Both the position numbers and the translations under genes were made by a program. The notes beneath the pieces were generated by a model that saw only the letters and a list, made by a program, of their open reading frames with translations, searched no databases and was not told the origin of the DNA. DNA of 24,000 nt from assembly GCF_028330765.1 (NCBI RefSeq), contig NZ_JAQMTY010000079.1, forward strand, positions 20,868-44,867, written 5' to 3'. The stretch comes from Spirulina subsalsa CS-330 (GTDB taxonomy: Bacteria; Cyanobacteriota; Cyanobacteriia; Cyanobacteriales; Spirulinaceae). This document shows, one piece after another, positions 5,358-23,946 of the stretch (the stretch's first letter is position 1; each line of letters starts with the position of its first letter).

Positions 5358-7331
5358 ATGGCCGAACAACGCCAATCCTTAGAAGAACTTACCTTGCGGC
5401 AACTGCGTAAAGTTGCCAGTGACTATAACATCTCTCGATACAGCAGAATGCGGAAATCGCAACTTCTCGCTGCTATCCAAGCGATTGAAATTGAACGCCT
5501 AGCTCCCCCCCTTTCATCTTCCGTTAACTTAGCGAGTCAACCAACCGAGGAAAAAACAGCAGTGGAAGCATCAAAGTTTGAAGTGGGTCAATACGACGAA
5601 GCCCTCCCGGATTTAGCTTCTGTGGATGCAGACTTACCCGACTTACCCAGTGGCTATGGTGAGAGTTGCATTGTGTTAATGCCTCGTGATCCCCAATGGT
5701 GTTACACCTATTGGGATATCCCCAACGACCAGAAAGAAAGCCTCCGTCGTCAGGGTGGACAACAACTCGCCCTCCGCATTTACGACGTTACCAACATCAA
5801 TCTCAACGACCAAAACCCTCAAAATACCCAAGAATACCCCTGCGATGAACTGGCCCGCGAGTGGTATTTACCGATTCCGATCAGCGATCGCGACTACATG
5901 GTCGAAATCGGCTATCGCTGCATGGATGGCCGTTGGCTCAGCCTCGCCCGTTCCGGCATCGTGCGCGTCCCCCCCGTCTACCCCTCCGACTGGATCGAAG
6001 ACCGCTTCATGACCGTAGAATGGGAACAAGAACTCGCCGGAAAATCCATCCATCACTTCGAGCAAATGGGCGGCGAAAGCATTGAAGACGAAATTCGCCG
6101 CCGGATGCGCGAACTCGAAGAAGTCGCCGCCACCAAACGCCAAGCCGGTTCCATGTTCCGCGCCGAAGAAAGCCTCAGCTCCTACATCTTCCCCTCTGGG
6201 ATCGGTCAATGGGCCTCTGGTGCTGGCATGTCCGGAGCAGGTTTAACCATGTCCGGTGCGGGGATGTCTGGGGCAGGCTTAACTATGTCCGGTGCTGGCA
6301 TGTCCGGTGTGGGTTTAACTATGTCCGGTGCTGGCATGTCCGGTGCAGGCATATCCGGTGCAGGCTTAACCATGTCCGGTGCAGGTGTTTCCGGTGCAGG
6401 GATAATGTCTGGTTATGGCATGGGTGAAACCCTCGTCTCCGGCATGGGCATGATGTCTGGCATGGGCATGATGTCCGGTTATGGCATGGGCGAAACCCTC
6501 GTATCCGGTATGGGCATGATGTCCGGGGCAGGCTTAACGATGTCCGGTATGGGCTTAACCGCTTCGGGTGCGGGCTTAACCATGTCCGGTTACGGAATGT
6601 CCGGCTTCGGCATGGGTGAAACCCTCGTCTCCGGCATGGGCATGATGTCCGGTTATGGCATGGGCGAAACCCTTGTCTCCGGCATGGGCATGATGTCTGG
6701 CGCAGGTTTAACGATGTCTGGCATGGGCTTCACCGCTTCGGGTGCGGGCTTAACGATGTCTGGTTATGGGATGTCCGGCTACGGGATGTCTGGCATGGGC
6801 ATGATGTCTGGGGCAGGCTTAACCGCTTCTGGATCTGGTATGGGCATGATGTCTGGTTATGGGATGTCCGGCTACGGGATGTCCGGCATGGGCATGATGT
6901 CTGGGGCAGGTTTAACCGCTTCTGGGTCTGGTATGGGCATGATGTCTGGGGCAGGTTTAACGATGTCCGGGGCTGGCCTCAGTGGCTTAACCATGTCCGG
7001 TTACAACATGTCCGGCGTTGGTTTTTCCGCCTCTGCCCCGCCGATTCGCCCCCGCAAATTCTGGCTTGTGGCCGATGCTGAATTGATCGTCTACGGCGCA
7101 ACGGAACCCGATGCCACCGTCACCATTGGCGGTCGTCCGATTAAGCTCAACGAAGACGGAACATTCCGGTTCCAAATGTCCTTCCAAGATGGCCAACTGG
7201 ACTACCCGATCATGGCGGTGGCCTCCGATGGTGAACAAACCCGTGCGATCCACATGGAATTTGAACGCCAAACGCCATCCCGCCACACCAATACACGGGA
7301 AGAGGCAACCCTAGAATGGTTCGACGCTTAA
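5358..7331 (+). CDS. Rho_N-domain / DUF4912-like protein with a long Met/Gly/Ser-rich repeat region
   Basis: 657 aa. The N-terminus LTLRQLRKVASDYNISRYSRMRKSQLLAAIQ resembles the Rho termination factor N-terminal (SAP-like) domain. CIVLMPRDPQWCYTYWDIP...LALRIYDVT resembles DUF4912. A C-terminal beta-rich module (FWLVADAELIVYGATEPDATVTIGGRPIKLNEDGTFRF) is present. The central ~270 aa is low-complexity repeat. Confidence 0.75.
   Translation: MAEQRQSLEELTLRQLRKVASDYNISRYSRMRKSQLLAAIQAIEIERLAPPLSSSVNLASQPTEEKTAVEASKFEVGQYDEALPDLASVDADLPDLPSGYGESCIVLMPRDPQWCYTYWDIPNDQKESLRRQGGQQLALRIYDVTNINLNDQNPQNTQEYPCDELAREWYLPIPISDRDYMVEIGYRCMDGRWLSLARSGIVRVPPVYPSDWIEDRFMTVEWEQELAGKSIHHFEQMGGESIEDEIRRRMRELEEVAATKRQAGSMFRAEESLSSYIFPSGIGQWASGAGMSGAGLTMSGAGMSGAGLTMSGAGMSGVGLTMSGAGMSGAGISGAGLTMSGAGVSGAGIMSGYGMGETLVSGMGMMSGMGMMSGYGMGETLVSGMGMMSGAGLTMSGMGLTASGAGLTMSGYGMSGFGMGETLVSGMGMMSGYGMGETLVSGMGMMSGAGLTMSGMGFTASGAGLTMSGYGMSGYGMSGMGMMSGAGLTASGSGMGMMSGYGMSGYGMSGMGMMSGAGLTASGSGMGMMSGAGLTMSGAGLSGLTMSGYNMSGVGFSASAPPIRPRKFWLVADAELIVYGATEPDATVTIGGRPIKLNEDGTFRFQMSFQDGQLDYPIMAVASDGEQTRAIHMEFERQTPSRHTNTREEATLEWFDA
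6217..7030 (+). repeat. In-frame nested tandem repeats (basic 21-nt unit encoding MSGAGLT; higher-order units)
   Basis: Reiterated atgtccggtgc(a/t)ggcttaac(c/t) units. Higher-order blocks recur: SGYGMGETLVSGMGMMSG x4, MGMMSGAGLTMSGMG(L/F)TASGAGLTMSGYGMSG x2, and YGMSGYGMSGMGMMSGAGLTASGSGMGMMSG x2. Confidence 0.9.
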
Positions 7332-9351: not shown

Positions 9352-9579
9352 ATGAACCACTTGTTAGCCGAAATGATCCAAAAAATCCAGATATTATCTG
9401 AACCGGATCAGAATCGTATTGCTAAAGATGTTATACAGTCCATTGATCGCATCCTCCAACAGACACAAGAAACGCCAAATTGTTCTCTCGTTCAGATGTT
9501 GCGATTGCCTATCTTAGATGAAGAGGAAATAATCTGTTTTGAGCGAGACAAGGATACAGGACGAGATTTTATTTTATGA
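9352..9579 (+). CDS. Putative antitoxin partner of VapC (VapB-like)
   Basis: A 75-aa ORF immediately upstream of the PIN toxin, with a 4-nt ATGA stop/start overlap (9576-9579). The composition is AT-rich and unlike the flanks. Confidence 0.6.
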   Translation: MNHLLAEMIQKIQILSEPDQNRIAKDVIQSIDRILQQTQETPNCSLVQMLRLPILDEEEIICFERDKDTGRDFIL

Positions 9580-10007
9580 AATATCTTCTGGATACTTGCG
9601 CTTTATCAGAATACTTGAAGAAAAAGCCGGATCACTCAGTGCTCTCTTGGATGTCTGAACAGGATGAGAATGCGTTATTTCTCAGTATTTTGACCATTGG
9701 TGAAATCAAAAAAGGGATTGTCAAGATAGAAAATCTTCATCCTGAAAAAGCCAGGATGTTATCGCAGTGGCTTGATAGCATAGAAGCGCGGTTTACATCT
9801 CGTATTCTGCCAATTGAGCAGGATGTGATTGATGTATGGGCAAAAATGTGTGGTGAAGCGTTGAGACGGGGGCAAAAACTTCCTGTCATTGATAGTTTAA
9901 TTGCTGCAACCTGTCGCTATCACAATTTGAACTTAGTGACTCGCAACGTTAAGGATTTTTCGATGATGAATGTTACTTTAATTAATCCTTGGAGTGGGGA
10001 GAAATGA
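9576..10007 (+). CDS. vapC: Type II toxin-antitoxin system VapC-family toxin (PIN domain)
   Basis: 143 aa. MKYLLDTCALSEY (first acidic residue), LSILTIGEIKKG and LVTRNVKDF are typical PIN/VapC motifs, and the gene is translationally coupled to the upstream small ORF. Confidence 0.85.
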   Translation: MKYLLDTCALSEYLKKKPDHSVLSWMSEQDENALFLSILTIGEIKKGIVKIENLHPEKARMLSQWLDSIEARFTSRILPIEQDVIDVWAKMCGEALRRGQKLPVIDSLIAATCRYHNLNLVTRNVKDFSMMNVTLINPWSGEK

Positions 10008-13625: not shown

Positions 13626-14330
13626 ATGAGTCAATCCCCCTCTACGCCTCCGAAAAAACGTGCCCCGGCCCCGGCGGCCCATCCCCTCCAGCTTTGGCAA
13701 GATAACCACAAACAAGAGGAAGTGCGGATTGAGATTATTCCGCTGATTGATGTGATTTTTTGTATTTTGACGTTTTTTATTTTGGCGGCGGTGGGGGTGT
13801 CGCGGCAGCAGGCGATTAGTTTGAACTTGCCGAAGGCGACGACGGGCACGGCGCAGATGCAGGAGATGTTGATCATCAGTTTGGATGATTTTGGGCAGGT
13901 GTATGTGGAGCAAAATCCGGTATCAACGCGAAACCAATTGTTTCAGGCGGTGGAGAGTTATTTTGCGACGCGGCCGGATGGGTTGATGGTGTTGTATGCG
14001 TCGAAGGAGGCGCGGTATGACGAGGTGATTCAGGTGTTGGATATTTTGCGAGAAGTGGGGGGCGATCGCGTCGCCTTAGCCACGCTCCCCGAAGGTCAAA
14101 CCCCGCAATCGGTTGAGCCTAACCCGATTGATCCCAACATGATCCCCAACGGTCTCCCCGACAGTGAACTCCCGCCGGACTTTGGACAACCCGGCCTCGA
14201 TCCCCTTGCCCCTAGTCCAGATAGTACCTTTCCCCCCACGGATGCCCCCGATTCCCTCGCTCCCCTCGGAGCACCGCCTATTCCCACCCCAGACCCGGAG
14301 CCGAATTTACCGGCTCTCCCAGCGGAGTAA
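13626..14330 (+). CDS. exbD: ExbD/TolR-family biopolymer transport protein with a Pro-rich C-terminal tail
   Basis: IEIIPLIDVIFCILTFFIL (TM) is followed by the ExbD periplasmic domain (ISLNLPKA...LIISLDDFGQVYVE...VLYASKEARYDEVIQVLDILREVG). ATG 13626 is preferred over the 13575 ORF start. The last ~80 aa are Pro/Asp-rich. Confidence 0.8.
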   Translation: MSQSPSTPPKKRAPAPAAHPLQLWQDNHKQEEVRIEIIPLIDVIFCILTFFILAAVGVSRQQAISLNLPKATTGTAQMQEMLIISLDDFGQVYVEQNPVSTRNQLFQAVESYFATRPDGLMVLYASKEARYDEVIQVLDILREVGGDRVALATLPEGQTPQSVEPNPIDPNMIPNGLPDSELPPDFGQPGLDPLAPSPDSTFPPTDAPDSLAPLGAPPIPTPDPEPNLPALPAE

Positions 14331-15342
14331 GGCCGGCGCGATCGCGGTCAACTTGCCAGCGTTTGAGGGCGCGGGAAAAGGCACTCAGCCCAGAGAAACC
14401 GAGGAGATAGGCCACTTCACTTTTGGTGAGGTCATCTTGGGTGAGGAGTTTGGCGGACATTACTTGGCGCACATCATCGAGGAGTTGGGTGAAGGTGGTT
14501 CCCTCCCGTTGGAGGTGATGTTGCAGGCTGCGGGAACTCATCATCAGGCAGGTGGCGACTTCCTGGATCGTGGGCAGATGGCCGTAGAGACTGATGGCGA
14601 GGATTTGCCGAACCCGATCGCTCACCAGATTGCCCACCGATTGCGTCAGGAGTACCTGCCCCTGCTGCTCAAACAGGTTAAAAAAATGGGGATTCGCCCC
14701 AATCACCGGCAACGTCAGCATCCGGCGATCGATCACGCAATAGGTTTCCTCGCCGCCAAACTGAAACGCCACATCGCCGAACGTCTCCCGATGCACCGTC
14801 AAGCCTGGATCATCGGATGGCGCAGCATAGTGAAATCCCATGCGTTGAATCAACTGGGTTTCCCGCCCCACCAACCGATCAAAAATACATTTGAGCGCAG
14901 ACATCACATAATCCACCACATACCGCTCCGCCGGATGCCAACCCATCTCACTGCTGGCGATCGCCAACTGCACAACCGTCGCATCTTGGCGCACCACAAA
15001 CCGCTCCACATCCGCCAACAGCCGCTCATACTGGGTCAAGATCGTCAACGCATCCCCCAGCGTTGGTGCATTCATCATCATGTAGCCCACCACCCCCAAG
15101 CTATTCAACAGCGCGTAGCGACCGAGCTTTAAGCCAATCTGTAGATCCTGAGTGACGCGGGCCAGTTCGTCCCACATGGCCCAGGCTTGCAGTACCGGAA
15201 AACGCGCCCCCGCTTGCAGCAGCATGGCCTGATCAATGCCGACTCGCCGCATCATGGGGGCGATCGCCACTCCGTGCGCTTGGGCCATTTGGAGAAAGGT
15301 ATAGATGAGGTGGGCAGAGACAGTCGGAGAACGCTGGAGCAT
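14278..15342 (-). CDS. AraC-family transcriptional regulator (N-terminal AraC-type ligand-binding domain plus C-terminal HTH)
   Basis: 354 aa. The C-terminal HTH_18 signature is present (TIQEVATCLMMSSRSLQHHLQREGTTFTQLLDDVR...SEVAYLLGFSGLSAFSRALKRW). The 3' end overlaps the exbD 3' end convergently by ~53 nt. Confidence 0.85.
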   Translation of the reverse strand: MLQRSPTVSAHLIYTFLQMAQAHGVAIAPMMRRVGIDQAMLLQAGARFPVLQAWAMWDELARVTQDLQIGLKLGRYALLNSLGVVGYMMMNAPTLGDALTILTQYERLLADVERFVVRQDATVVQLAIASSEMGWHPAERYVVDYVMSALKCIFDRLVGRETQLIQRMGFHYAAPSDDPGLTVHRETFGDVAFQFGGEETYCVIDRRMLTLPVIGANPHFFNLFEQQGQVLLTQSVGNLVSDRVRQILAISLYGHLPTIQEVATCLMMSSRSLQHHLQREGTTFTQLLDDVRQVMSAKLLTQDDLTKSEVAYLLGFSGLSAFSRALKRWQVDRDRAGLTPLGEPVNSAPGLGWE

Positions 15343-15567
15343 TGCACTAATTCGGATGCTTTACAAAATTTCACGGGGCATTGTGCATAAGGCCAAACTT
15401 TTGGCGTTGTCGGCCAACCTCATTTTTGATTAACCCTTTCATAATGCAACAAATAGCATCTTCACCATCATCATCGGGTGAATATTTCAGGTCGTCGTTG
15501 GCTCGATGTCTGAGGTTCAGCAGATCGTAAAGTGCATTTTTAATCCTGACATTTGCCCTCAACCCCC

Positions 15568-16572
15568 ATGTCTACCTCCTTAAAACTCTCTCGAAAACGT
15601 GACGCGATCACACCTTCTCCCAAAACAATGCCTTCCCAAAAAGGTGCGATCGCACCCCCCACGACCACCCTCCCCCCTGGGGCGTTGATTGATAATGTCA
15701 GCCAAGCCGCGCCAACCGTGCAACGGCAAGCCACCGGAGCAACCGCCGCCCCGGTCGAAATTGAATCCGAAATTCACCGCGCCCAAGGCAGCGGCCAAGC
15801 CCTCGACCCGCAGCTACAGCGTTCCATGGGTCAAGCCATGGGAGCCGATTTCAGCCATGTCAAAGTCCACACCGATCGCACCTCAGATACGCTCAACCAC
15901 GCCCTCCAAGCCAAAGCCTTCACCACCGGCAGCGATGTCTTTTTCCGCCAAGGGGAATACAACCCCAGCAGCAAAGGCGGCCAAGAACTGATCGCCCACG
16001 AACTCACCCACGTCGTCCAGCAAACCGGCGCAGCGGTGCAACGTCAACACGATCCGATCATTCAACGCCTAGGTTTGTCAGACGCATCAAAACACCTCAC
16101 TTCCCCTGATCCGGCTGCCGATCAAGTAGCACGGGCCGACTTTATTCGAGACAATTTTAGTGATTTTTGGTTTCGACTCCGGATGGATCGGCCATTATGT
16201 GATGCAACATTAGACTTTACTGATAAAAATCTTGCCGGTGAAAACCTGAGAATCATTCGAGATGCCTACCATGCGTCGATTGGTTTGCCGGCCATTTTCG
16301 ATCAATATATTCCCTATGATGGGCCTGATTATGTCAATATTGGCTCTCGTTTGAGAGATCGATTAATCGCCCAAGGTCGAGATAATTTTACGATGACAGA
16401 TATGGAAGAAGTATTAAGAGAATTAGCTGGCCCCGTGAGAACTATAATTCACAATGAACGAAGTAAGCCAGCATTTGCAGCCGATTACATTGCGATGTCC
16501 GATGCGTTTGGATATGGTGCTGGAGGGGGGCGTGAGCGAACTCGGGGGCGGGGTGATGCTAGTGCAGACTAA
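15568..16572 (+). CDS. DUF4157-like HExxH domain protein with an unrelated AT-rich C-terminal domain (copy 1)
   Basis: The core GSGQALDPQLQRSMGQAMGADFSHVKVHTDRTSDTLNHALQAKAFTTGSDVFFRQGEYNPSSKGGQELIAHELTHVVQQ matches the DUF4157 pattern as I remember it, with HELTH encoded at 15997-16011. The ATG at 15568 is preferred over TTG 15553. The C-terminal ~170 aa have no recognisable family. Confidence 0.8.
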   Translation: MSTSLKLSRKRDAITPSPKTMPSQKGAIAPPTTTLPPGALIDNVSQAAPTVQRQATGATAAPVEIESEIHRAQGSGQALDPQLQRSMGQAMGADFSHVKVHTDRTSDTLNHALQAKAFTTGSDVFFRQGEYNPSSKGGQELIAHELTHVVQQTGAAVQRQHDPIIQRLGLSDASKHLTSPDPAADQVARADFIRDNFSDFWFRLRMDRPLCDATLDFTDKNLAGENLRIIRDAYHASIGLPAIFDQYIPYDGPDYVNIGSRLRDRLIAQGRDNFTMTDMEEVLRELAGPVRTIIHNERSKPAFAADYIAMSDAFGYGAGGGRERTRGRGDASAD

Positions 16573-16718
16573 TAATGATGCTTGAATATCTTTCTATTAC
16601 GTTCATTCCCTTAATTTTGGATCATGAAATAGAGGCTACTCAGTATAGGAAAAAAGTTAGTCAAAAATCTCTAGAGGTTGATCGCAAGCAATAGAAATTC
16701 ACGATAAAAAAAAGACTC

Positions 16719-18656
16719 ATGACCGAGACTCAAACAACCCATTCAGACCAATTACAGGAACTTTATAACGGGGTTGCATGGGTGCGATCGCACCTCAGCC
16801 ACTATCTCGAATCCGGTCAAGTGCAGCGCGACCATCCGCCGCCGCCCGTATCACGCTTGGCGAGTCTGTCGCAGCGGTTGGGGTTGTCTTCGTTTGAAGC
16901 GAAAATTGTGCTGCTCTGTGGGGCGATGGAACTTGATCCCCATGGTGCGACCCTCTGCGCTCAGATGATGGGCAACCCAGACCATAGCTATCCGACTCTG
17001 GCGCTGGCGTTGATGTTGTTTCCCGATGCGGCGTGGGATGTGCTGTCGCCCCAATGTCCGTTGTTACGGTGGCAGGTGGTGAAGCTGGATGCAACGTTGG
17101 GATTGACCCGCGCTCGGTTGACCCTTGACCCTCGGATTTTGTGCGATTTACTGGGCGTGCCTGCGTTCGATCGCGCCCTAGCTCCTTGGATTCATCCCCT
17201 CAGCCTCGAAACCATCGCCCTGCCGCCGTCCCAGCAAGCGATCGCCGATCAAGTCATCCCCGTCTGGCGTTCCGGTCAGTATCCCCTGGTGCAACTGTGC
17301 GGCACAGATCGCCAGGCCAAACGTGCGATCGCCCTCACCATTGCCCAGACGTTAGGCTTGCAGATTTATCAACTCCCGATTAGTAATCTGAGCAGCGATC
17401 GCGACACCCTCACCACCCTAAAGCAGCAATGGTTGCGGGAAGCCATTCTCAGCCAAGCGATCCTCTTGATTGATGCCGATGCCCAAACCCAGCCGGAGCA
17501 AAAAATCGCGATCGCGTCCTTTGTCGCCGGCCTCCCCGTTCCTCTGATCCTGAGCAACCAAAGCCGCCAACCCCTCAACGAAACCAGCCTCACCTTTGAA
17601 TTGCGCCCCCTCCCCTACCGCGAAAAGCGGCAACTGTGGCACACCTATCTCGGCGATCGCGCCGCCGATCTCAACGGCCACCTCGATCCCCTCGTTGCCC
17701 AATTCAGCCTCAACAGCCACACGATCCAAGCGGCCTGCGCTGCCGTCCAAGATGTCCCCAGCCCCGATTTAAGCGATCGCCTCTGGCACTATTGCCGCAC
17801 CCAAGCCCGCCCCCAACTCGACCACCTCGCCCAGCGCATCCACTGCACCGCCACCTGGGACGACCTCGTCTTGCCCGATCGCGAACGTACCATCCTCCGC
17901 GACATCGCTACCCACGTCAAACAACGCGCCAAAGTTTACGAAAAATGGGGGTTCGCCGCCAAAAGTGTTCGGGGGCTGGGGATTACGGCTCTCTTTGCCG
18001 GGGCCAGTGGGACGGGGAAAACCATGGCCGCCGAAGTGCTGGCCCAAGAATTCCAACTCGATCTCTATCGCATTGATCTCAGCGCCGTTAGTAGTAAATA
18101 CATTGGCGAAACCGAGAAAAATCTCCGCCAAATTTTCGACGCTGCCGAAGCCGGATCAGCCGTTTTACTCTTCGATGAAGCTGATGCTTTATTTGGCAAA
18201 CGAACGCAGGTAAAAGATAGTCACGATCGCCACGCCAATTTAGAAGTGAGTTACCTCTTACAACGGATGGAATCCTATCAAGGCTTGGCGATTTTAACCA
18301 CCAATCTCCGCGATTCCCTCGATCAGGCCTTTGTGCGGCGGCTCCGGTTTATGCTCACCTTTCCGTTTCCCAAGGCAGAACATCGTTACGCCATCTGGCA
18401 GCGCATTTTTCCCCCTCAAACCCCCACCCAGGCGTTGGATTATGACGAATTGGCCCAGCTTGAAGTAGCGGGGGGAAATATTCGAGCGATCGCCCTCAAT
18501 GCCGCCTTCGTTGCCGCCGAAGCCCATGAGCCGATCCAAATGAAACATCTCCTCAAAGCCGTGCGCGTCGAATATTTAAAAATCGGTCAACCCTTAACCA
18601 ATATCGATCTTGAGGTATGGCTCGATCCGGAAAACGTCACCGCATCCGCATCATAA
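16719..18656 (+). CDS. AAA+ ATPase, N-terminal variable region plus C-terminal single AAA module (copy 1)
   Basis: 645 aa. Walker A is GASGTGKT (18000-18023) and Walker B is VLLFDEAD (18162-18185). SKYIGETEKNLRQIF and DRHANLEVSYLLQRME..GLAILTTN are typical of the CDC48/FtsH-like AAA clade that, to my recollection, includes eCIS Afp15/Pvc15-type ATPases. Confidence 0.88.
   Translation: MTETQTTHSDQLQELYNGVAWVRSHLSHYLESGQVQRDHPPPPVSRLASLSQRLGLSSFEAKIVLLCGAMELDPHGATLCAQMMGNPDHSYPTLALALMLFPDAAWDVLSPQCPLLRWQVVKLDATLGLTRARLTLDPRILCDLLGVPAFDRALAPWIHPLSLETIALPPSQQAIADQVIPVWRSGQYPLVQLCGTDRQAKRAIALTIAQTLGLQIYQLPISNLSSDRDTLTTLKQQWLREAILSQAILLIDADAQTQPEQKIAIASFVAGLPVPLILSNQSRQPLNETSLTFELRPLPYREKRQLWHTYLGDRAADLNGHLDPLVAQFSLNSHTIQAACAAVQDVPSPDLSDRLWHYCRTQARPQLDHLAQRIHCTATWDDLVLPDRERTILRDIATHVKQRAKVYEKWGFAAKSVRGLGITALFAGASGTGKTMAAEVLAQEFQLDLYRIDLSAVSSKYIGETEKNLRQIFDAAEAGSAVLLFDEADALFGKRTQVKDSHDRHANLEVSYLLQRMESYQGLAILTTNLRDSLDQAFVRRLRFMLTFPFPKAEHRYAIWQRIFPPQTPTQALDYDELAQLEVAGGNIRAIALNAAFVAAEAHEPIQMKHLLKAVRVEYLKIGQPLTNIDLEVWLDPENVTASAS
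17998..18592 (+). repeat. ~0.6-kb dispersed direct repeat, copy A (3' part of AAA+ gene 1)
   Basis: Collinear with 23297-23891 at a constant offset of 5299 nt with no indels seen. My manual count gives about 23 mismatches over ~595 nt. Confidence 0.85.
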
Positions 18657-18901
18657 TCAGGGGCGATCAACTATCTGGCTAACGTGAGTTTGATGAACAG
18701 AAAGGGGCAAGAAAAACGCTGAGACTGAAAAAAAGAAAGCCCCGACTCAGCAATAAATACCAATTCAACCCAAGAAAACCGTCTGGATGTGACATTCCGC
18801 AAGTTACTCAAACATTGCTCCATCAATGGTGCGTCAGATTGATGAATTCATGATGATATATAGCGATCTTAAATCAATCGGAGATCTTATCTCCTCATCA
18901 A

Positions 18902-18921
18902 CAAGGGGCTTCAGCCCCTTG
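18902..18921. terminator. Perfect 8-bp hairpin between convergent genes (possible bidirectional terminator)
   Basis: caaggggc ttca gccccttg. A second small hairpin, ggagat ctt atctcc, lies at 18880-18894. There is no clear T run on either side. Confidence 0.3.
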
Positions 18922-19035
18922 CCTGTTCATGAATCAAATAGGATTGCTATAGAGGGTTGAATGGTCTGACGCATCATTCAGTACCATCATTTGTCTGAAC
19001 CTGCGGAAAGTGAGTTAGAACCCTCTGCCATCTGG

Positions 19036-21669
19036 CTAAACCTCGCTTTTCTGCGACTTCTTGCGGTTATTCGTGAGGGTTTCAATCCGATTAAAGAGCA
19101 ATGTTTGCTCTTTAAACGCTTGATCATAGACATGGCGAATTACATCCTGGGTGTTGGGATCATTCTTGCCGTTGGGGTCAAACTCTGGATAAGCTGCTTC
19201 GCAGCAATTTATAATATCGATGATGGCTGGCAAGAGTTTTCTGATCGAAGTTCGTGAGTCATAATCAGTTTTTGTCTTTTGACGATGGTAGTACGACATT
19301 GCCTCAGCAAGTTCGTTTAAATTGAAGGTAGATTGTTCATAAGAACCAGACACCGGCTTGCCTGGAATAAAGTTCAATTTCTTAATAAGTATATCTCTCA
19401 ACATGATTTGTGTACCAAACTGGCGATGTTTTTCAGCGGCATTATCATACATTTCGCCCTGTTGTAAAGTTCCTTTTGGACTAGGCAGTTTTCTTTCAGT
19501 TTTAGGTTTAAGTTTTGCTTGAGTTTTAGGTTGTTTGATTTCTACTTCTGTATTTTTTTGAGGACTAGAACCTTCCCCAGAAGTTGCAGAATTTTGGTTT
19601 ACATTTTTTGTCGAGCTATCTTGAGCATTGTCCGCAGAGGATTTCTTCTTCAGTGCAGATAACAGTTTGTCTGATTCATCCTCAATATTGCTGTAGATCG
19701 ATCTAGCGCAAGTTGCAGGGCAGTCCTTCGCTTCTTTTGGGCTAATGCAATCCCAATAATCACCCGTAATTCGGCTCATCTGATCGAGTAAATTAAGGGC
19801 ATCAGTAAGATTGCTTATTCCCTTTGAATTTTGATCCCGGAATTTTTCATACTCCTGCAAAATATTGATCATCTGGCTATGGGACTGGATATAGTCTTCC
19901 TTCTGTGCATGATCACCATTACTCATTTTATAGTCAAAGACCGCCGCTTCTTGCTTTTCAAATTCCGCTGCGGTCATGATCTCATTAGTCAAGAAATATT
20001 GAGTTGAGTCTATTTCAGTGGCATCCTCTTGACCCTGAGCCGTTTGGCGATCGCTCCCTCCACTCTGTTTGCCATCCTCAATTTTAACCTTTTCACCCTG
20101 ACCTTCTTGCAAGCTGGGAGGTTTAATCGTCACATCTACTTCTAGATCTTCCGGTGCAAGATGTTCAAAATTATCAATAAGTGACTGATAATCTTCTATA
20201 CTTCCTTTGATATCTTTGAGGGTTTCAAATATTCCTTCCATGTATACGGGAGGTTCTTGTATTTCTTTGTAAATATTGGCGGGTTTTAGGAGCTTGCTGT
20301 GAATCTTAAATACGATCGTCAGAAGACTAGACACAGTAGTATCTTCGCCAAATGATTTGATGTATTCAGAACAAGGTTCAACCAAACCTTGTTCAATCAA
20401 AGTCTTGAGAGACAAAATCATTTTAATTTGATCAACAACGCTCATGCCTCCCTGTTTAGCAAAAAATGCTTGTCTTGCTTGTATAAACATTTTAAAACCA
20501 TTATCAATTACGGCAAACCTTTCATTTTTTCGAGAGCCAAAGAAAGGAGTTGTTTTTTCAATAAAGTAATCTAGCGGCATCAAATTAATTTGCACCGCAG
20601 CCACCATGTCTTGAAGATCAAGATCTCGTTGATTTTCGATGGTAGTTATTGCTTTAAAGGAATCTTTGACTTCTGATTTAAAACTAGCTAGATTCTGTTG
20701 GTTAGATAAGGCAAATTGAATCTCTTCAGCGACGTGTGCTTTCATATTCGTTTCAACGGCTGTATTTGCTGGTAAAGCTTGGATTTTTTTAAGCATATTC
20801 AAGCATTGACTAGACTGCTTAATCAAGCCATCAAAGTCTGCCTCAATTGTCTTCAAAACATTGCGACGCTCCTTAGGGGGAATACTTTTACCACTCTTCT
20901 TCGCTTGATCGCCAATAATTTGATCTACTTTATTATGTAAATCGTAAACTTTTTGAAGACAACTGATATTAAACGTCAAATAATTTTTGTAGAGGTCTTG
21001 AAGGGTTCCCAAATTATTCACTTGAGACTCTTGTTTCTGGACGGATTGGGAGCCGCCGGATTGCTGTACCACATGGGTTAATTCGTGGGCGATTAATTCC
21101 TGACCTGCTGTGCTGTTGGGGTTGTATTCGCCTTGGCGGAAAAATACGTCTTGCCCGGTGGTAAACGCCTTAGCTTGGATGGCGGTATTGAGTTGATCGG
21201 ACTGGCCATTGGTATGAATCCGCACGTTGCTAAAATCTGCCCCCATGGCCTGGCCCATGGATTCCTGCAAATTCGTGTCTAGAGATTGACCCCCTCCCTT
21301 GGCCCGTTGAATCCCAGTTTCCACATCCGCAGCAACAGCCCCGCCTCCTAAATTTCCCTGAGCCTGCATGACTCCCGCAAGGGGTGAAGGGGTGAGATTG
21401 CGGCCAACGGGTTGAATCGGGGTGGATTTCGTTTGGACGGTGGGGGCATTGATGGCCTGTACCACTTGTTTGGCGGTGGCATCGGCTTCCTGTTCGTAGC
21501 GATCGCCCACCTCCCCCAAGGTTAACTTCGCCTGAACCGGCAGCAGGCCAGAACCCTCGACCGCCACCACCGATGGTGGCACAGCGCGGGGTGAAGGGGC
21601 TAGATGGGAAGCCTTTTTTTGGACGGGCGGCACAAAAGGACGAGACTGTTGAACTTGATTTTTAGCCAT
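19036..21669 (-). CDS. DUF4157-like HExxH domain protein with a ~650-aa AT-rich, mostly helical C-terminal extension (copy 2)
   Basis: 877 aa. The N-terminal motif is GDRYEQEADATAKQVV. The core GGGQSLDTNLQESMGQAMGADFSNVRIHTNGQSDQLNTAIQAKAFTTGQDVFFRQGEYNPNSTAGQELIAHELTHVVQQ has HELTH encoded at 21073-21087 and looks about 70% identical to copy 1 by eye. The rest has no recognisable family. Confidence 0.82.
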   Translation of the reverse strand: MAKNQVQQSRPFVPPVQKKASHLAPSPRAVPPSVVAVEGSGLLPVQAKLTLGEVGDRYEQEADATAKQVVQAINAPTVQTKSTPIQPVGRNLTPSPLAGVMQAQGNLGGGAVAADVETGIQRAKGGGQSLDTNLQESMGQAMGADFSNVRIHTNGQSDQLNTAIQAKAFTTGQDVFFRQGEYNPNSTAGQELIAHELTHVVQQSGGSQSVQKQESQVNNLGTLQDLYKNYLTFNISCLQKVYDLHNKVDQIIGDQAKKSGKSIPPKERRNVLKTIEADFDGLIKQSSQCLNMLKKIQALPANTAVETNMKAHVAEEIQFALSNQQNLASFKSEVKDSFKAITTIENQRDLDLQDMVAAVQINLMPLDYFIEKTTPFFGSRKNERFAVIDNGFKMFIQARQAFFAKQGGMSVVDQIKMILSLKTLIEQGLVEPCSEYIKSFGEDTTVSSLLTIVFKIHSKLLKPANIYKEIQEPPVYMEGIFETLKDIKGSIEDYQSLIDNFEHLAPEDLEVDVTIKPPSLQEGQGEKVKIEDGKQSGGSDRQTAQGQEDATEIDSTQYFLTNEIMTAAEFEKQEAAVFDYKMSNGDHAQKEDYIQSHSQMINILQEYEKFRDQNSKGISNLTDALNLLDQMSRITGDYWDCISPKEAKDCPATCARSIYSNIEDESDKLLSALKKKSSADNAQDSSTKNVNQNSATSGEGSSPQKNTEVEIKQPKTQAKLKPKTERKLPSPKGTLQQGEMYDNAAEKHRQFGTQIMLRDILIKKLNFIPGKPVSGSYEQSTFNLNELAEAMSYYHRQKTKTDYDSRTSIRKLLPAIIDIINCCEAAYPEFDPNGKNDPNTQDVIRHVYDQAFKEQTLLFNRIETLTNNRKKSQKSEV

Positions 21670-21811
21670 GGTGTCACCTATCGAAGCTGAGGAATATACG
21701 GAATCTATGCGGAATTTTGCCCTCAGTTTTGATCGGGCATTACGGGAGTTTATAACATCATGAGAGGTGAATTGAAATACGACTTTAGTCTAGATTTTTA
21801 AATCACCTTCT

Positions 21812-21840
21812 ATTGTTTTCACTTGACAAGTGAAAACAAT
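21812..21840. promoter_or_regulatory. Perfect 13-3-13 inverted repeat (candidate operator) in the divergent promoter region
   Basis: attgttttcactt gac aagtgaaaacaat, read directly from the sequence. It contains TTGACA (21823-28), and a TACAAT hexamer lies at 21851-56. Confidence 0.5.
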
Positions 21841-21948
21841 TCTGGTTCGTTACAATGTGGGTAAATAGTAAATCTTGAAAAGAAGTGAATCTATCATTGA
21901 TAACTCAAAAGAGATACTTGTTTAAAACCGATTCAGCGATATAAAGCG

Positions 21949-23946
21949 ATGAATAATGATTGGCACGCCGTCAATTCACAATCCTTGATTGAAAATGTTA
22001 ATCAGCTTCAGCAGTTTTTAGAACGGCGGTGGTCTGCTCAACAAAACCCCGACGAGGATATCGGGGGAGATCGTGATCCCATGATCCAGATCCCGGCACT
22101 TTCCCCCCCTTCCCGCCTAGAAACGCTTTACACCACATTTAACCTCTCTCCCTTTGAACTGAATTCGCTGCTCATGGCCGTTGGCGTTGCCCTTTTTCCC
22201 CGGTTTTCTGCCCTCTGTGCCAGCTTCAACCATAACCCCCAGATGCCCTATCCCACCTTTGGCCTGGGGTTACAACTTTTTGCCCATGCCCATTGGAATG
22301 CTTTCACACCCCAAGGGCCCCTCCGCCGTTGGCAACTCCTGGATGTGGGAACTGGCCCAGTCATTACCCAATGCCCGCTGCAAATCGATGAAACGATTTT
22401 GCATTACTTGATGGGGGAACCCTACCAAGACGATCGCCTCGCTTCCTTCATGAGTCCCCTGGTGGCGGATACGGCGGCAATGTTGCCCCCCTCCCATGCT
22501 CAGATTGTGGAGAACCTGTTAACACTGCTGACGGCTGAGACTCCGGGGATGGTGCAACTGTGTGGTGTGGAGCATAGTGATAAACGGGCGATCGCTGCCG
22601 CTGTGGGGGAAGCTCTCCAGAGACCTGTGAAAATTTTATGGGGCGATCGCCTCCCCACCGACCGGGACAACCTCCGCTACATCACCCAACGCTGGCAACG
22701 GGAAGCCGCCCTCACCCAAAGCTTGTTAATTCTCGATCTTGACGGCTTCAATTTTGCTGATGGGGCCAAAGGGGCGATCGCCACCCAACTGATCACCGAT
22801 CTGCCACCCCCCCTGCTCATCTTCACGGAAGAACGCATCCAAAGCCCCCGCCATCCCCTCATTACCCTTGAAATCCTCTCCCTCACCTATCAAGAACAAC
22901 TGGATCTCTGGCAGCGGAACCTAGGTGAGGCGACCCACCTCCTCAGTGGTGAGTTAGGGATGATGGTGTCACAATTTAACCTCAGTCCCCAGGCGATTCA
23001 AGCCGCTGCCCATCATCTTCAAAAACAACCTCAAACCGAGTCAACCTCCACCGCATCTCCCTCGATCATTGCCCAACAACTGTGGCAAATTTGCCGCACC
23101 ATGGCCCGCCCCCGCTTAGATGACCTTGCCCAACGCATTGATACTAAAGCCACTTGGTCAGATTTGGTTTTACCGGAAAATCAACTGAAAATTTTGCAGC
23201 AAATTGCTGTCCAACTGCGTCAACGGTCTAAGGTCTATCAAGAATGGGGCTTTGCGGCTCAAAATAATCGCGGTTTAGGGATGACGGCGTTATTTTCCGG
23301 GGCCAGTGGGACGGGGAAAACCATGGCCGCCGAAGTGCTGGCCCAAGAATTCCAACTCGATCTCTATCGCATTGATCTCAGTGCCGTGAGTAGTAAATAC
23401 ATTGGCGAAACTGAGAAAAATCTCCGCCAAATTTTCGACGCTGCCGAAGCCGGATCAGCGGTTTTACTCTTCGATGAAGCTGATGCTTTGTTTGGCAAGC
23501 GGAGCGAGGTGAAAGATAGCCACGATCGCCACGCCAATTTAGAAGTGAGTTACCTCTTACAACGGATGGAATCCTATCAAGGCTTGGCGATTTTAACCAC
23601 CAATCTCCGCGATTCCCTTGATCAGGCCTTTGTGCGGCGGCTCCGGTTTATGCTCACCTTTCCGTTTCCCAAGGCAGAGCATCGTTACGCCATCTGGCAG
23701 CGCATTTTCCCCCCTCAAACCCCCACCCAGGCGTTGGATTATGACGAATTGGCCCAGCTTGAAGTAGCCGGGGGAAATATTCGAGCGATCGCCCTCAATG
23801 CCGCCTTCAATGCCGCCGAAGCCCATGAGCCGATCCAAATGAAACATCTCCTCAAAGCCGCCCGCGTCGAATATTTAAAAATTGGTCAAGCCCTGACGGG
23901 GATTGATCTAGATGCGTGGTTGGAGCCGCAACGGGTCGAAAACTGA
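21949..23946 (+). CDS. AAA+ ATPase, N-terminal variable region plus C-terminal single AAA module (copy 2)
   Basis: 665 aa. Walker A is GASGTGKT (23299-23322) and Walker B is LLFDEAD. The C-terminal ~200 aa are nearly identical to copy 1, while the N-terminal ~450 aa are only distantly similar (e.g. YPTFGLGLQLF / PLRRWQLL versus YPTLALALMLF / PLLRWQVV). Confidence 0.88.
   Translation: MNNDWHAVNSQSLIENVNQLQQFLERRWSAQQNPDEDIGGDRDPMIQIPALSPPSRLETLYTTFNLSPFELNSLLMAVGVALFPRFSALCASFNHNPQMPYPTFGLGLQLFAHAHWNAFTPQGPLRRWQLLDVGTGPVITQCPLQIDETILHYLMGEPYQDDRLASFMSPLVADTAAMLPPSHAQIVENLLTLLTAETPGMVQLCGVEHSDKRAIAAAVGEALQRPVKILWGDRLPTDRDNLRYITQRWQREAALTQSLLILDLDGFNFADGAKGAIATQLITDLPPPLLIFTEERIQSPRHPLITLEILSLTYQEQLDLWQRNLGEATHLLSGELGMMVSQFNLSPQAIQAAAHHLQKQPQTESTSTASPSIIAQQLWQICRTMARPRLDDLAQRIDTKATWSDLVLPENQLKILQQIAVQLRQRSKVYQEWGFAAQNNRGLGMTALFSGASGTGKTMAAEVLAQEFQLDLYRIDLSAVSSKYIGETEKNLRQIFDAAEAGSAVLLFDEADALFGKRSEVKDSHDRHANLEVSYLLQRMESYQGLAILTTNLRDSLDQAFVRRLRFMLTFPFPKAEHRYAIWQRIFPPQTPTQALDYDELAQLEVAGGNIRAIALNAAFNAAEAHEPIQMKHLLKAARVEYLKIGQALTGIDLDAWLEPQRVEN
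23297..23891 (+). repeat. ~0.6-kb dispersed direct repeat, copy B (3' part of AAA+ gene 2)
   Basis: See copy A at 17998-18592. Confidence 0.85.

Follow-up and report, generated by a model that had tools for sequence, protein, structure and literature searches.

Two detached DUF4157 effector and Afp15/Pvc15-type ATPase gene pairs in Spirulina, probably satellites of a contractile injection system encoded elsewhere

The DNA analysed here is a stretch of 24,000 nucleotides (nt), referred to as the window, on a 52-kb contig of a strain named Spirulina major CS-329 in our analysis, of which PCC 6313 is the sister strain. It contains two gene pairs, each of which joins a protein with an HExxH motif in a DUF4157 domain (effectors 1 and 2) to an AAA ATPase (A1 and A2). 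By homology and gene context, the effectors are probably cargo, and the ATPases their loaders or unfoldases, for a contractile injection system (CIS) particle encoded elsewhere, a reading to which we give a probability of about 70%. The pairs are best read as satellite modules of a distant CIS because no CIS structural gene was found in about 41 kb around them and the extracellular CIS (eCIS) operon of PCC 6313 is far from the syntenic island in that strain; an initial annotation, made from the letters of the window, had offered several placements, and orphan modules for a distant eCIS is the one that fits best.

The four large genes had been described as two pairs with gaps of 146 nt (effector 1/A1; GC content 0.315) and 279 nt (effector 2/A2; GC content 0.355), and the open reading frames (ORFs) and both gaps were recovered as follows:

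15553-16572, + strand: effector 1 (DUF4157/HExxH), 339 amino acids (aa) from a TTG at 15553
16719-18656, + strand: A1, ATPase of the Afp15/Pvc15 type, 645 aa
19036-21669, - strand: effector 2 (DUF4157/HExxH), 877 aa
21949-23946, + strand: A2, ATPase with the architecture of A1, 665 aa

The deposited annotation starts effector 1 at an ATG at 15568 instead of the TTG at 15553, giving 334 aa. All four ORFs are intact, with the Walker A/B and HExxH motifs kept, and comparison with orthologues indicated purifying selection in all segments (ratio of nonsynonymous to synonymous substitution rates, dN/dS, 0.05-0.4). These values, together with the existence of orthologues of effector 2 (76% identity) and A2 (98%), speak for four genuine genes and against chance ORFs.

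Both ATPases matched a winged-helix domain (WHD, PF22977) and an AAA domain (PF00004, E 1e-26 and 2e-26) in Pfam, and their parts are arranged as follows:

16848-17186, + strand: A1, N-terminal helix and then the winged-helix domain, aa 44-156
17214-17918, + strand: A1, degenerate AAA-like D1 domain, about aa 166-400, with QLCGTDRQAKRAIA at the P-loop position
+ strand, aa 401-645: A1, D2 domain, predicted to be active, with Walker A GASGTGKT at 18000-18023 and Walker B LLFDEAD
+ strand, aa 55-167 and aa 448-571: A2, winged-helix domain and AAA domain, respectively (Pfam)

At the P-loop position of the D1 domain, A1 has QLCGTDRQAKRAIA and A2 has QLCGVEHSDKRAIA, neither with a GKT, and at its Walker B position they have LLIDAD and LILDLD, respectively, from which the catalytic Glu is absent; the canonical Walker motifs (GASGTGKT and LLFDEAD) are confined to the D2 domain. 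In an AlphaFold2 (AF2) model built from 16 family members (mean confidence, pLDDT, 82), the chain runs from an N-terminal helix through the WHD and an alpha/beta D1 domain, lid included, to D2, and Foldseek aligned about 550-580 columns of this model to the D1+D2 tandem of p97/Cdc48. A1 is collinear with Afp15 of the Serratia entomophila plasmid pADAP (34% identity, aa 47-624 against 91-693, E 4e-75), which itself carries the same WHD and AAA architecture in Pfam; the Afp locus was located on pADAP by tblastn of plasmids, and the gene was taken as afp15 on account of its neighbours, the CIS tape-measure gene on one side and the DUF4255 terminator gene on the other. A1 and A2 are thus full-length Afp15 homologues consisting of a WHD, a degenerate D1 and a D2 of predicted activity. 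Their assignment to the Afp15/Pvc15 family, with which the contexts of 80 metagenomic loci agree, was borne out, and the collinear alignment and shared architecture speak against an unrelated clade. The description of one C-terminal AAA module behind a long N-terminal region held for the AAA module, while the N-terminal region proved to be a PF22977 WHD followed by a degenerate D1 domain.

A1 is 88% identical, at the nucleotide level and from end to end, to the lone ATPase gene of the PCC 6313 island. The N-terminal and D1 parts of A2 share 34-41% identity with every other cyanobacterial copy examined in an identity matrix of N-terminal regions; A2 is 98% identical to protein P0023, encoded on a Joint Genome Institute (JGI) contig (L167) divergently from an effector-2-like gene and followed by ffh.

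The two HExxH proteins matched PF13699, now named 'eCIS_core' (eCIS core domain), with E 2e-31 for effector 1 and 8e-32 for effector 2 (108.4 and 109.7 bits, gathering cut-off 22), which settles in the affirmative the earlier proposal that they are DUF4157 proteins. Among polymorphic toxins, a PVC-metallopeptidase pre-toxin domain was reportedly described by Zhang and colleagues in 2012. The label 'PVC-metallopeptidase' is also used by Geller et al. 2021. The parts of the two proteins are as follows:

15553-15801, + strand: effector 1 leader, aa 1-83, Pro/Ala-rich, putatively disordered
15802-16032, + strand: effector 1 DUF4157/eCIS_core, aa 84-160, HExxH (HELTH) at aa 149
16033-16569, + strand: effector 1 C-terminal domain, aa 161-339, no Pfam match
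21669-21283, - strand: effector 2 leader, aa 1-129, Pro/Ala-rich, putatively disordered
21282-21052, - strand: effector 2 DUF4157, aa 130-206, HExxH (HELTH) at aa 195
21051-19039, - strand: effector 2 C-terminal domain, aa 207-877 (671 aa), no Pfam or PDB match

The leaders contain 10-13% Pro, 13% Ala and 69-73% disorder-promoting residues, a composition that suggests disorder; the cores are 52% identical across 160 aa, each ending in AHELTHVVQQ, and the C-terminal regions are unrelated. The Pro/Ala-rich leader, conserved core and unrelated C-termini noted earlier are therefore upheld, and together they follow the plan of leader, DUF4157 and variable C-terminus described for CIS cargo. Effector 1 has an orthologue in PCC 6313 (83% nucleotide identity), with dN/dS of 0.23 in the leader, 0.08 in the core and 0.14 in the C-terminal domain, and its single-sequence AF2 model was of low confidence throughout (pLDDT 37.7).

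Both effector C-termini are compositionally foreign, with GC content at third codon positions (GC3) of about 0.35, compared with 0.55-0.70 for the leader and core parts of the same proteins and 0.57-0.70 for host genes. In effector 1 the C-terminal GC3 is 0.35 (leader and core, 0.57-0.70), and in effector 2 the C-terminal domain has a GC3 of 0.356 and a GC content of 0.386 (leader and core GC, 0.53-0.59). This base composition suggests that the payloads were acquired and joined immediately after the HExxH motif. Pfam searches of the C-terminal domains at E values up to 10 returned noise only, and sequence searches of the PDB found no match. A search of 1.84 billion representative proteins found only three relatives of the 671-aa C-terminus of effector 2, one of them in the full-length orthologue P0283 (76% identity); this C-terminus is a near-orphan sequence that may conceal a new effector activity.

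Two short motifs were recognised in the leaders:

15673-15696, + strand: leader motif A, PPGALIDN, in effector 1
21481-21525, - strand: leader motif B, LTLGEVGDRYEQEAD, aa 49-63 of effector 2

Motif A of effector 1 recurs in the two DUF4157 proteins that the PCC 6313 island encodes and in the two of locus L003 of Spirulina sp. SIO3F2, and it was found in 6 of the 78 DUF4157 ORFs scanned, a count in which effector 1 appears twice because the window's own contig (L001) was in the set. Motif B, as the pattern L.IG.PGD.YEQEAD, occurs about 100-170 aa upstream of HExxH in 18/78 of these ORFs (effector 2 again counted twice, for the same reason), and its carriers include DUF4157 proteins of canonical CIS operons (for example at L008, L088, L094, L145 and L162).

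The pairing itself is familiar from CIS operons. Metagenomes were scanned with an ATPase alignment, which gave 80 loci with relatives that are 42-52% identical, nearly all close to the full query length, and in which the recurrent order begins with sheath and tube, continues after about 3 kb with the ATPase and then one to three DUF4157 genes, and closes with VgrG and gp25. CIS structural genes are present in 16 of the 19 metagenomic loci whose flanks reach at least 6 kb on either side, and also in L004, L007 and L008. Where the sequence continues for at least 1.5 kb downstream of the ATPase (51 loci), a DUF4157 gene on the same strand starts within 1 kb downstream in 29, and a DUF4157 gene lies anywhere in the locus in 40. 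These adjacency counts and the recurrent operon order identify an ATPase followed by DUF4157 as a standard CIS sub-module; the proposed adjacency of the two families is conserved among metagenomic relatives, and the pairing is not an undescribed one. Geller et al. 2021 reported an odds ratio of 2614 for the occurrence of DUF4157 in eCIS operons.

In the closest CIS-bearing cyanobacteria, SIO3F2 (L007) and the metagenome-assembled genome (MAG) P01_G01_bin.54 (L008), the ATPase gene lies upstream of the sheath gene, at a distance of about 2.3 kb; L008 has a divergent DUF4157/ATPase pair, as in pair 2 of the window, and the L007 contig ends inside the ATPase gene. A divergent pair also adjoins the CIS cluster in Moorea, and a lone one, detached and amid housekeeping genes, is found in Cylindrospermum. 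SIO3F2 encodes at least nine ATPase paralogues, among them a tandem array (DUF4157-ATPase, DUF4157-ATPase) next to mutS2, two more loci amid housekeeping genes, and one ATPase gene with no DUF4157 gene adjacent. On SIO3F2 contig L168 (3045-9913), DUF4157 proteins of 798 and 699 aa show weak C-terminal matches to Aspzincin_M35, and downstream of each is a separate ATPase paralogue. An ATPase of 50% identity is encoded beside petC, petA (apocytochrome f) and a gene for a BMC-domain (bacterial microcompartment shell) protein on contig L006 of a MAG labelled Actinomycetota (GCA_050262755.1); the contig is probably cyanobacterial and was placed with actinobacterial sequence by a binning error.

Whether there is a CIS for the pairs to serve was approached through the sister strain, in which a syntenic island lies between the AraC-type regulator gene and ffh, the same two genes that bound the island in the window. 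The eCIS operon of PCC 6313 is operon 588 in the Supplementary Data of Geller et al. 2021 (Contig40:4665660-4701118), a set in which the two Spirulina genomes included are both eCIS-positive. With the island at about 2.15 Mb on a 4.99-Mb scaffold, the operon is at least 1.8 Mb away in either orientation, an approximate distance since it mixes IMG and GenBank assembly coordinates. The presence of a CIS in the window strain itself is presumed from that of its sister.

The imprecision of that distance is one of several points that count against placing the pairs with a distant CIS. Hidden Markov models (HMMs) for sheath, tube, CIS_tube, VgrG and gp25 were searched against the window, and no sheath, tube, VgrG or gp25 gene was found there, in the 10 kb upstream or in the 7.5 kb downstream (about 41 kb in all); no immunity-like ORF lies downstream of either effector, and a recognisable toxin fold was found in neither C-terminal domain in Pfam or the PDB. 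Moorea and SIO3F2 sheath queries returned no Spirulina major sheath among the best 120 matches, and a genome scan with six 8-mer sheath patterns gave two cyanobacteria and Bacteroidota and no Spirulina major; neither result implies absence. Nor does the known loading mechanism need a dedicated ATPase for each cargo, since one AlgoCIS ATPase serves both of its cargos. The lack of sheath, tube and VgrG genes in the window and of obvious immunity genes had been remarked on in the initial annotation, and HMM searches and ORF inspection agree with it; Geller et al. 2021 noted that many eCIS-associated toxins (EATs) are without immunity genes. While 88% of known EATs are encoded in a CIS operon or within about ten genes of one, the present locus is in neither position. 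It is not the edge of a CIS locus either, as housekeeping genes lie on both flanks: the 10 kb upstream of the window contains housekeeping genes, and A2 is followed by ffh, arsA, a restriction-modification S subunit gene, hicAB and folB up to the end of the contig (7.5 kb), which disposes of the earlier alternative of a larger locus beginning outside the window.

In AlgoCIS, the ATPase activity of Alg15 and the N-terminal leader of the cargo are needed for the loading of DUF4157 cargo, and DUF4157 itself is dispensable (PMC8894135; bioRxiv 10.64898/2026.05.27.728243). Pvc15 is required for loading of the Photorhabdus virulence cassette (PVC) particle and is laid out as an N domain, D1 and D2, of which D2 is the sole active ATPase. 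By analogy with these systems, we infer that the disordered leader would act as the packaging signal, with the HExxH DUF4157 domain next and an exchangeable C-terminal payload last. The ATPase, presumably as a hexamer, would engage the leader, and its active D2 ring would unfold the cargo and thread it into the inner tube; the structural genes for this CIS particle would be located elsewhere in the genome. The strain-variable island itself may evolve through cassette exchange, in which tracts of about 650 nt within the AAA modules would act as direct repeats, homologous recombination between them would add or delete a cassette of effector plus ATPase N-terminus, and effector C-termini would be exchanged just downstream of HExxH.

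The two AAA tracts are:

17941-18594, + strand: copy 1 of the AAA-module tract, in A1; a direct repeat of copy 2, about 5.3 kb apart
23240-23894, + strand: copy 2, in A2

They are 94.2% identical across 657 nt (blastn). Codons 426-605 of A1 and A2 share 97-99% nucleotide identity, with 0.80-0.97 of third positions identical, whereas codons 1-425 encode proteins of about 35-40% identity with third positions at the random level; accordingly, synonymous divergence (dS) is 0.118 in the shared tract against more than 1.6 (saturated) upstream. That the C-terminal modules are alike and the N-terminal regions differ had been noted before, and both parts are true, except that the C-terminal modules are not merely similar but nearly identical in nucleotide sequence. 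In a three-way alignment, the PCC 6313 ATPase gene matches A1 upstream of the tract and A2 across the final approximately 70 nt of the gene and the 3' flank, from which the D2 tail and 3' flank of A2 are judged to be those of the ancestral locus. A single exchange between the direct repeats would, on this alignment, interconvert the two-pair and the one-ATPase layouts, and recombination between the AAA tracts would explain the difference between the strains.

Between the effector 1 orthologue and the ATPase gene, the PCC 6313 island has two extra hypothetical genes and a gene for a 160-aa protein made up of a leader and DUF4157 only (L002, 7317-9819). The hypothetical genes, of 278 and 208 aa, flank the 160-aa protein and are absent from the window strain. 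By analogy with the toxins that have been described adjoining DUF4157 genes (Geller et al. 2021), the 160-aa protein and its neighbours may represent trans-acting DUF4157 adaptors with separate payloads.

The question of whether each ATPase is matched to its neighbouring effector was weighed within the CIS reading. Each paralogue might be a cargo-specific loader whose N domain reads leader motif A or B, with one particle type receiving alternative cargos, a proposal that we hold tentatively and with the odds somewhat against it. It is consistent with A1-type N-terminal regions travelling with motif-A leaders (in the window strain, PCC 6313 and SIO3F2), with the A2 N-terminal region travelling with effector 2 in an independent metagenomic contig, with dN/dS of 0.19-0.4 in the N-terminal and D1 regions even though the paralogues are saturated, and with the hypothesis of the AlgoCIS authors that the leader is recognised by a cognate AAA+ protein. 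The same facts speak against the converse, that the ATPases serve a CIS but are interchangeable, their adjacency to effectors reflecting a co-mobilised fragment of an ancestral operon with no cargo specificity; we regard that as plausible but less likely than not, and it draws on the single ATPase gene that precedes one to three DUF4157 genes in canonical operons, the loading of both AlgoCIS cargos by one Alg15 and the SIO3F2 ATPase with no neighbouring DUF4157 gene. It also gains from the Pvc15 work, in which signal-peptide handling is ascribed to D2, the very part that is homogenised here. Similarity of the ATPase N domain covaried with that of the cargo leader (Mantel r 0.26), and when ATPase D2 similarity was controlled for, the signal was weak (partial r 0.15, p 0.04), which makes specificity between ATPase and leader too weak to claim; the identity matrix of cyanobacterial N-terminal regions was not decisive for A2. 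The suggestion in the initial annotation that each N-terminal region recognises its own partner accordingly keeps this weak covariation on its side, while the Pvc15 work points to D2.

A CIS-independent role for the pairs, as a two-gene system for stress, defence or self-lysis or for a toxin exported by other means, appears improbable. It would accord with the lack of CIS structural genes nearby, with modules in excess of one per CIS locus (the SIO3F2 paralogues), with the 3 of 19 well-flanked metagenomic loci in which structural genes are missing, with the presumed status of the CIS in the window strain, and with sub-threshold similarity of the AAA domain to the anti-phage ATPases IetA and IteA. 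In its fullest form the tandem-AAA unfoldase and HExxH partner would be autonomous (toxin processing, export, stress or defence) and multiplied in cyanobacteria, with CIS operons carrying one copy, and this too we think quite unlikely. The same ATPase family and motif B occur in canonical CIS operons, the homology to Afp15 extends over the whole length, the sister strain and relatives with satellite copies carry CIS loci, and the odds ratio for DUF4157 in eCIS operons (Geller et al. 2021) speaks for the same association. The PADLOC and NCBIfam matches, to IetA, IteA and TRIP13, run via the AAA domain and are below threshold, those to IetA and IteA by far (IetA, 88-103 bits against an NCBIfam cut-off of 510), with no IetS-type partner and no PADLOC match for the DUF4157 protein. 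An IetAS/IteAS defence system was rejected as a candidate, with IteA at 88.7 and 92.6 bits against 510 and the PADLOC IetA match restricted to the AAA domain; an independent protease-ATPase system, as floated earlier, is likewise disfavoured, the IetA/IteA matches (88-93 bits against the cut-off of 510) being AAA-only. It is very improbable that the four genes are the decaying, non-functional remains of what was once a CIS locus. The absence of structural genes beside them and the strain-dependent content of the island would fit, but the intact ORFs, the preserved Walker A/B and HExxH motifs, the dN/dS range of 0.05-0.4, orthologues of 76-98% identity in other samples and similar satellite modules in several genomes all oppose decay.

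The pairs, read as satellite cargo-loader modules of a distant CIS, share features with several known systems. The AlgoCIS cargos Cgo1 and Cgo2 of Algoriphagus machipongonensis (Xu et al. 2022, PMC8894135) likewise have a leader, DUF4157 and a C-terminus of variable size, and an AAA+ ATPase is encoded with that system (Alg15 is likened to A1 and A2 by description only); there, one ATPase and both cargos are in the structural cluster, whereas here there are two ATPases, each beside one cargo and detached. The thylakoid-anchored CIS of Anabaena PCC 7120 is also cyanobacterial, and its proposed cargos are the DUF4157 proteins Alr3311 and Alr3312, both detected when CIS preparations were analysed by mass spectrometry (Weiss et al. 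2022, PMC8894136); the effector genes of Anabaena flank the structural cluster, and the main text of that paper has no discussion of an ATPase, unlike the detached, ATPase-paired effectors here. The 'split' eCIS loci of Chen et al. 2019 (PMC6899500), who count Afp15 among eight core eCIS components, also have components at two genomic sites, but they divide one structural set, whereas the detached part here is a multiplied sub-module of ATPase and effector. Afp15 of Serratia entomophila and Pvc15 of Photorhabdus resemble A1 and A2 in their N domain, D1 and D2 with Walker motifs in D2 only (and Afp15 in its Pfam PF22977 WHD and AAA), but each is a single-copy gene in a 16-gene operon rather than duplicated and detached, and the Afp and PVC cargos Afp18, Pnf and Pdp1 have no DUF4157, in contrast to the DUF4157 cargo paired with the ATPases here. 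[quoted passage not shown] Such T6SS orphan and polymorphic-toxin cassettes share with the present pairs a conserved N-terminal trafficking part and an exchangeable, foreign C-terminus; they differ in that the accessory here is a tandem-AAA unfoldase, not an adaptor, chaperone or VgrG, and that there is no immunity gene.

Neither the gene families nor the cargo architecture nor the loader role is new, and dispersed EATs and split loci have been noted before. In the literature searched, which was incomplete, no description was found of detached, multiplied modules of effector and Afp15-like ATPase or of recombination between AAA tracts. How cargo is selected and loaded is an open question for CIS and one that limits their engineering as protein-delivery tools, and this locus, together with the larger SIO3F2 sets, is chiefly valuable as a natural test, within a single genome, of whether loaders are specific to their cargo: since the motors are nearly identical and the N-terminal halves and leaders differ, cognate and non-cognate loading can be tested directly and mapped to the N and D1 domains. 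A further lesson of the locus concerns the diversification of effector repertoires, which may proceed through gain and loss of cassettes via the AAA tracts and fusion of foreign payloads after HExxH. If the pairs were truly to need no CIS, the meaning of two 'eCIS core' annotation markers would have to be revised.

The following features belong to the edge of the island and to the region between effector 2 and A2:

14278-15342, - strand: AraC-family regulator gene (Arabinose_bd and HTH_18 in Pfam), divergent from effector 1, left edge of the island
21670-21948, no strand: effector 2/A2 intergenic region, GC 0.355, between divergent genes

The AraC-type gene occupies the same position in PCC 6313, with 73% nucleotide identity against 93-94% for the adjoining housekeeping genes, and it could, speculatively, be part of the variable island and its regulator. 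A perfect 10-bp inverted repeat, TTGTTTTCAC-N7-GTGAAAACAA, lies at 21813-21839 in the effector 2/A2 intergenic region. It is kept in L167 (857-881) and, among the fetched loci, is present only there and in the window's own contig; this repeat could be a candidate operator. Scans for promoter and terminator consensus sequences gave no excess over shuffled controls.

The other genes of the window are housekeeping genes: sua5, a larC-like gene, ftsW, msrA, genes for a DUF4912 protein, COP23 and a PIN-domain protein, acsF, a glutathione S-transferase (GST) gene, exbB/exbD and the AraC-type regulator gene. Toxin-antitoxin and mobile-type genes are abundant nearby, with a stand-alone PIN-domain (VapC-like) gene in a low-GC stretch (9576-10007, + strand, GC 0.46) and, beyond the window, hicAB and the type I restriction-modification S subunit gene. 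A 322-aa ORF antisense to the AraC-type gene (14164-15132, + strand), rich in His, Arg, Pro and Gln, is almost certainly a shadow ORF. The gene at 5358-7331 (+ strand) encodes a 657-aa protein with Rho_N and DUF4912 domains, within which 6219-6973 encodes about 300 aa of Gly/Met/Ser-rich tandem repeats (GMMSGAGLTMSG...; Tandem Repeats Finder (TRF) periods of 15-174 nt, up to 97% match), and a second assembly of the window strain has a contig break within this repeat gene.

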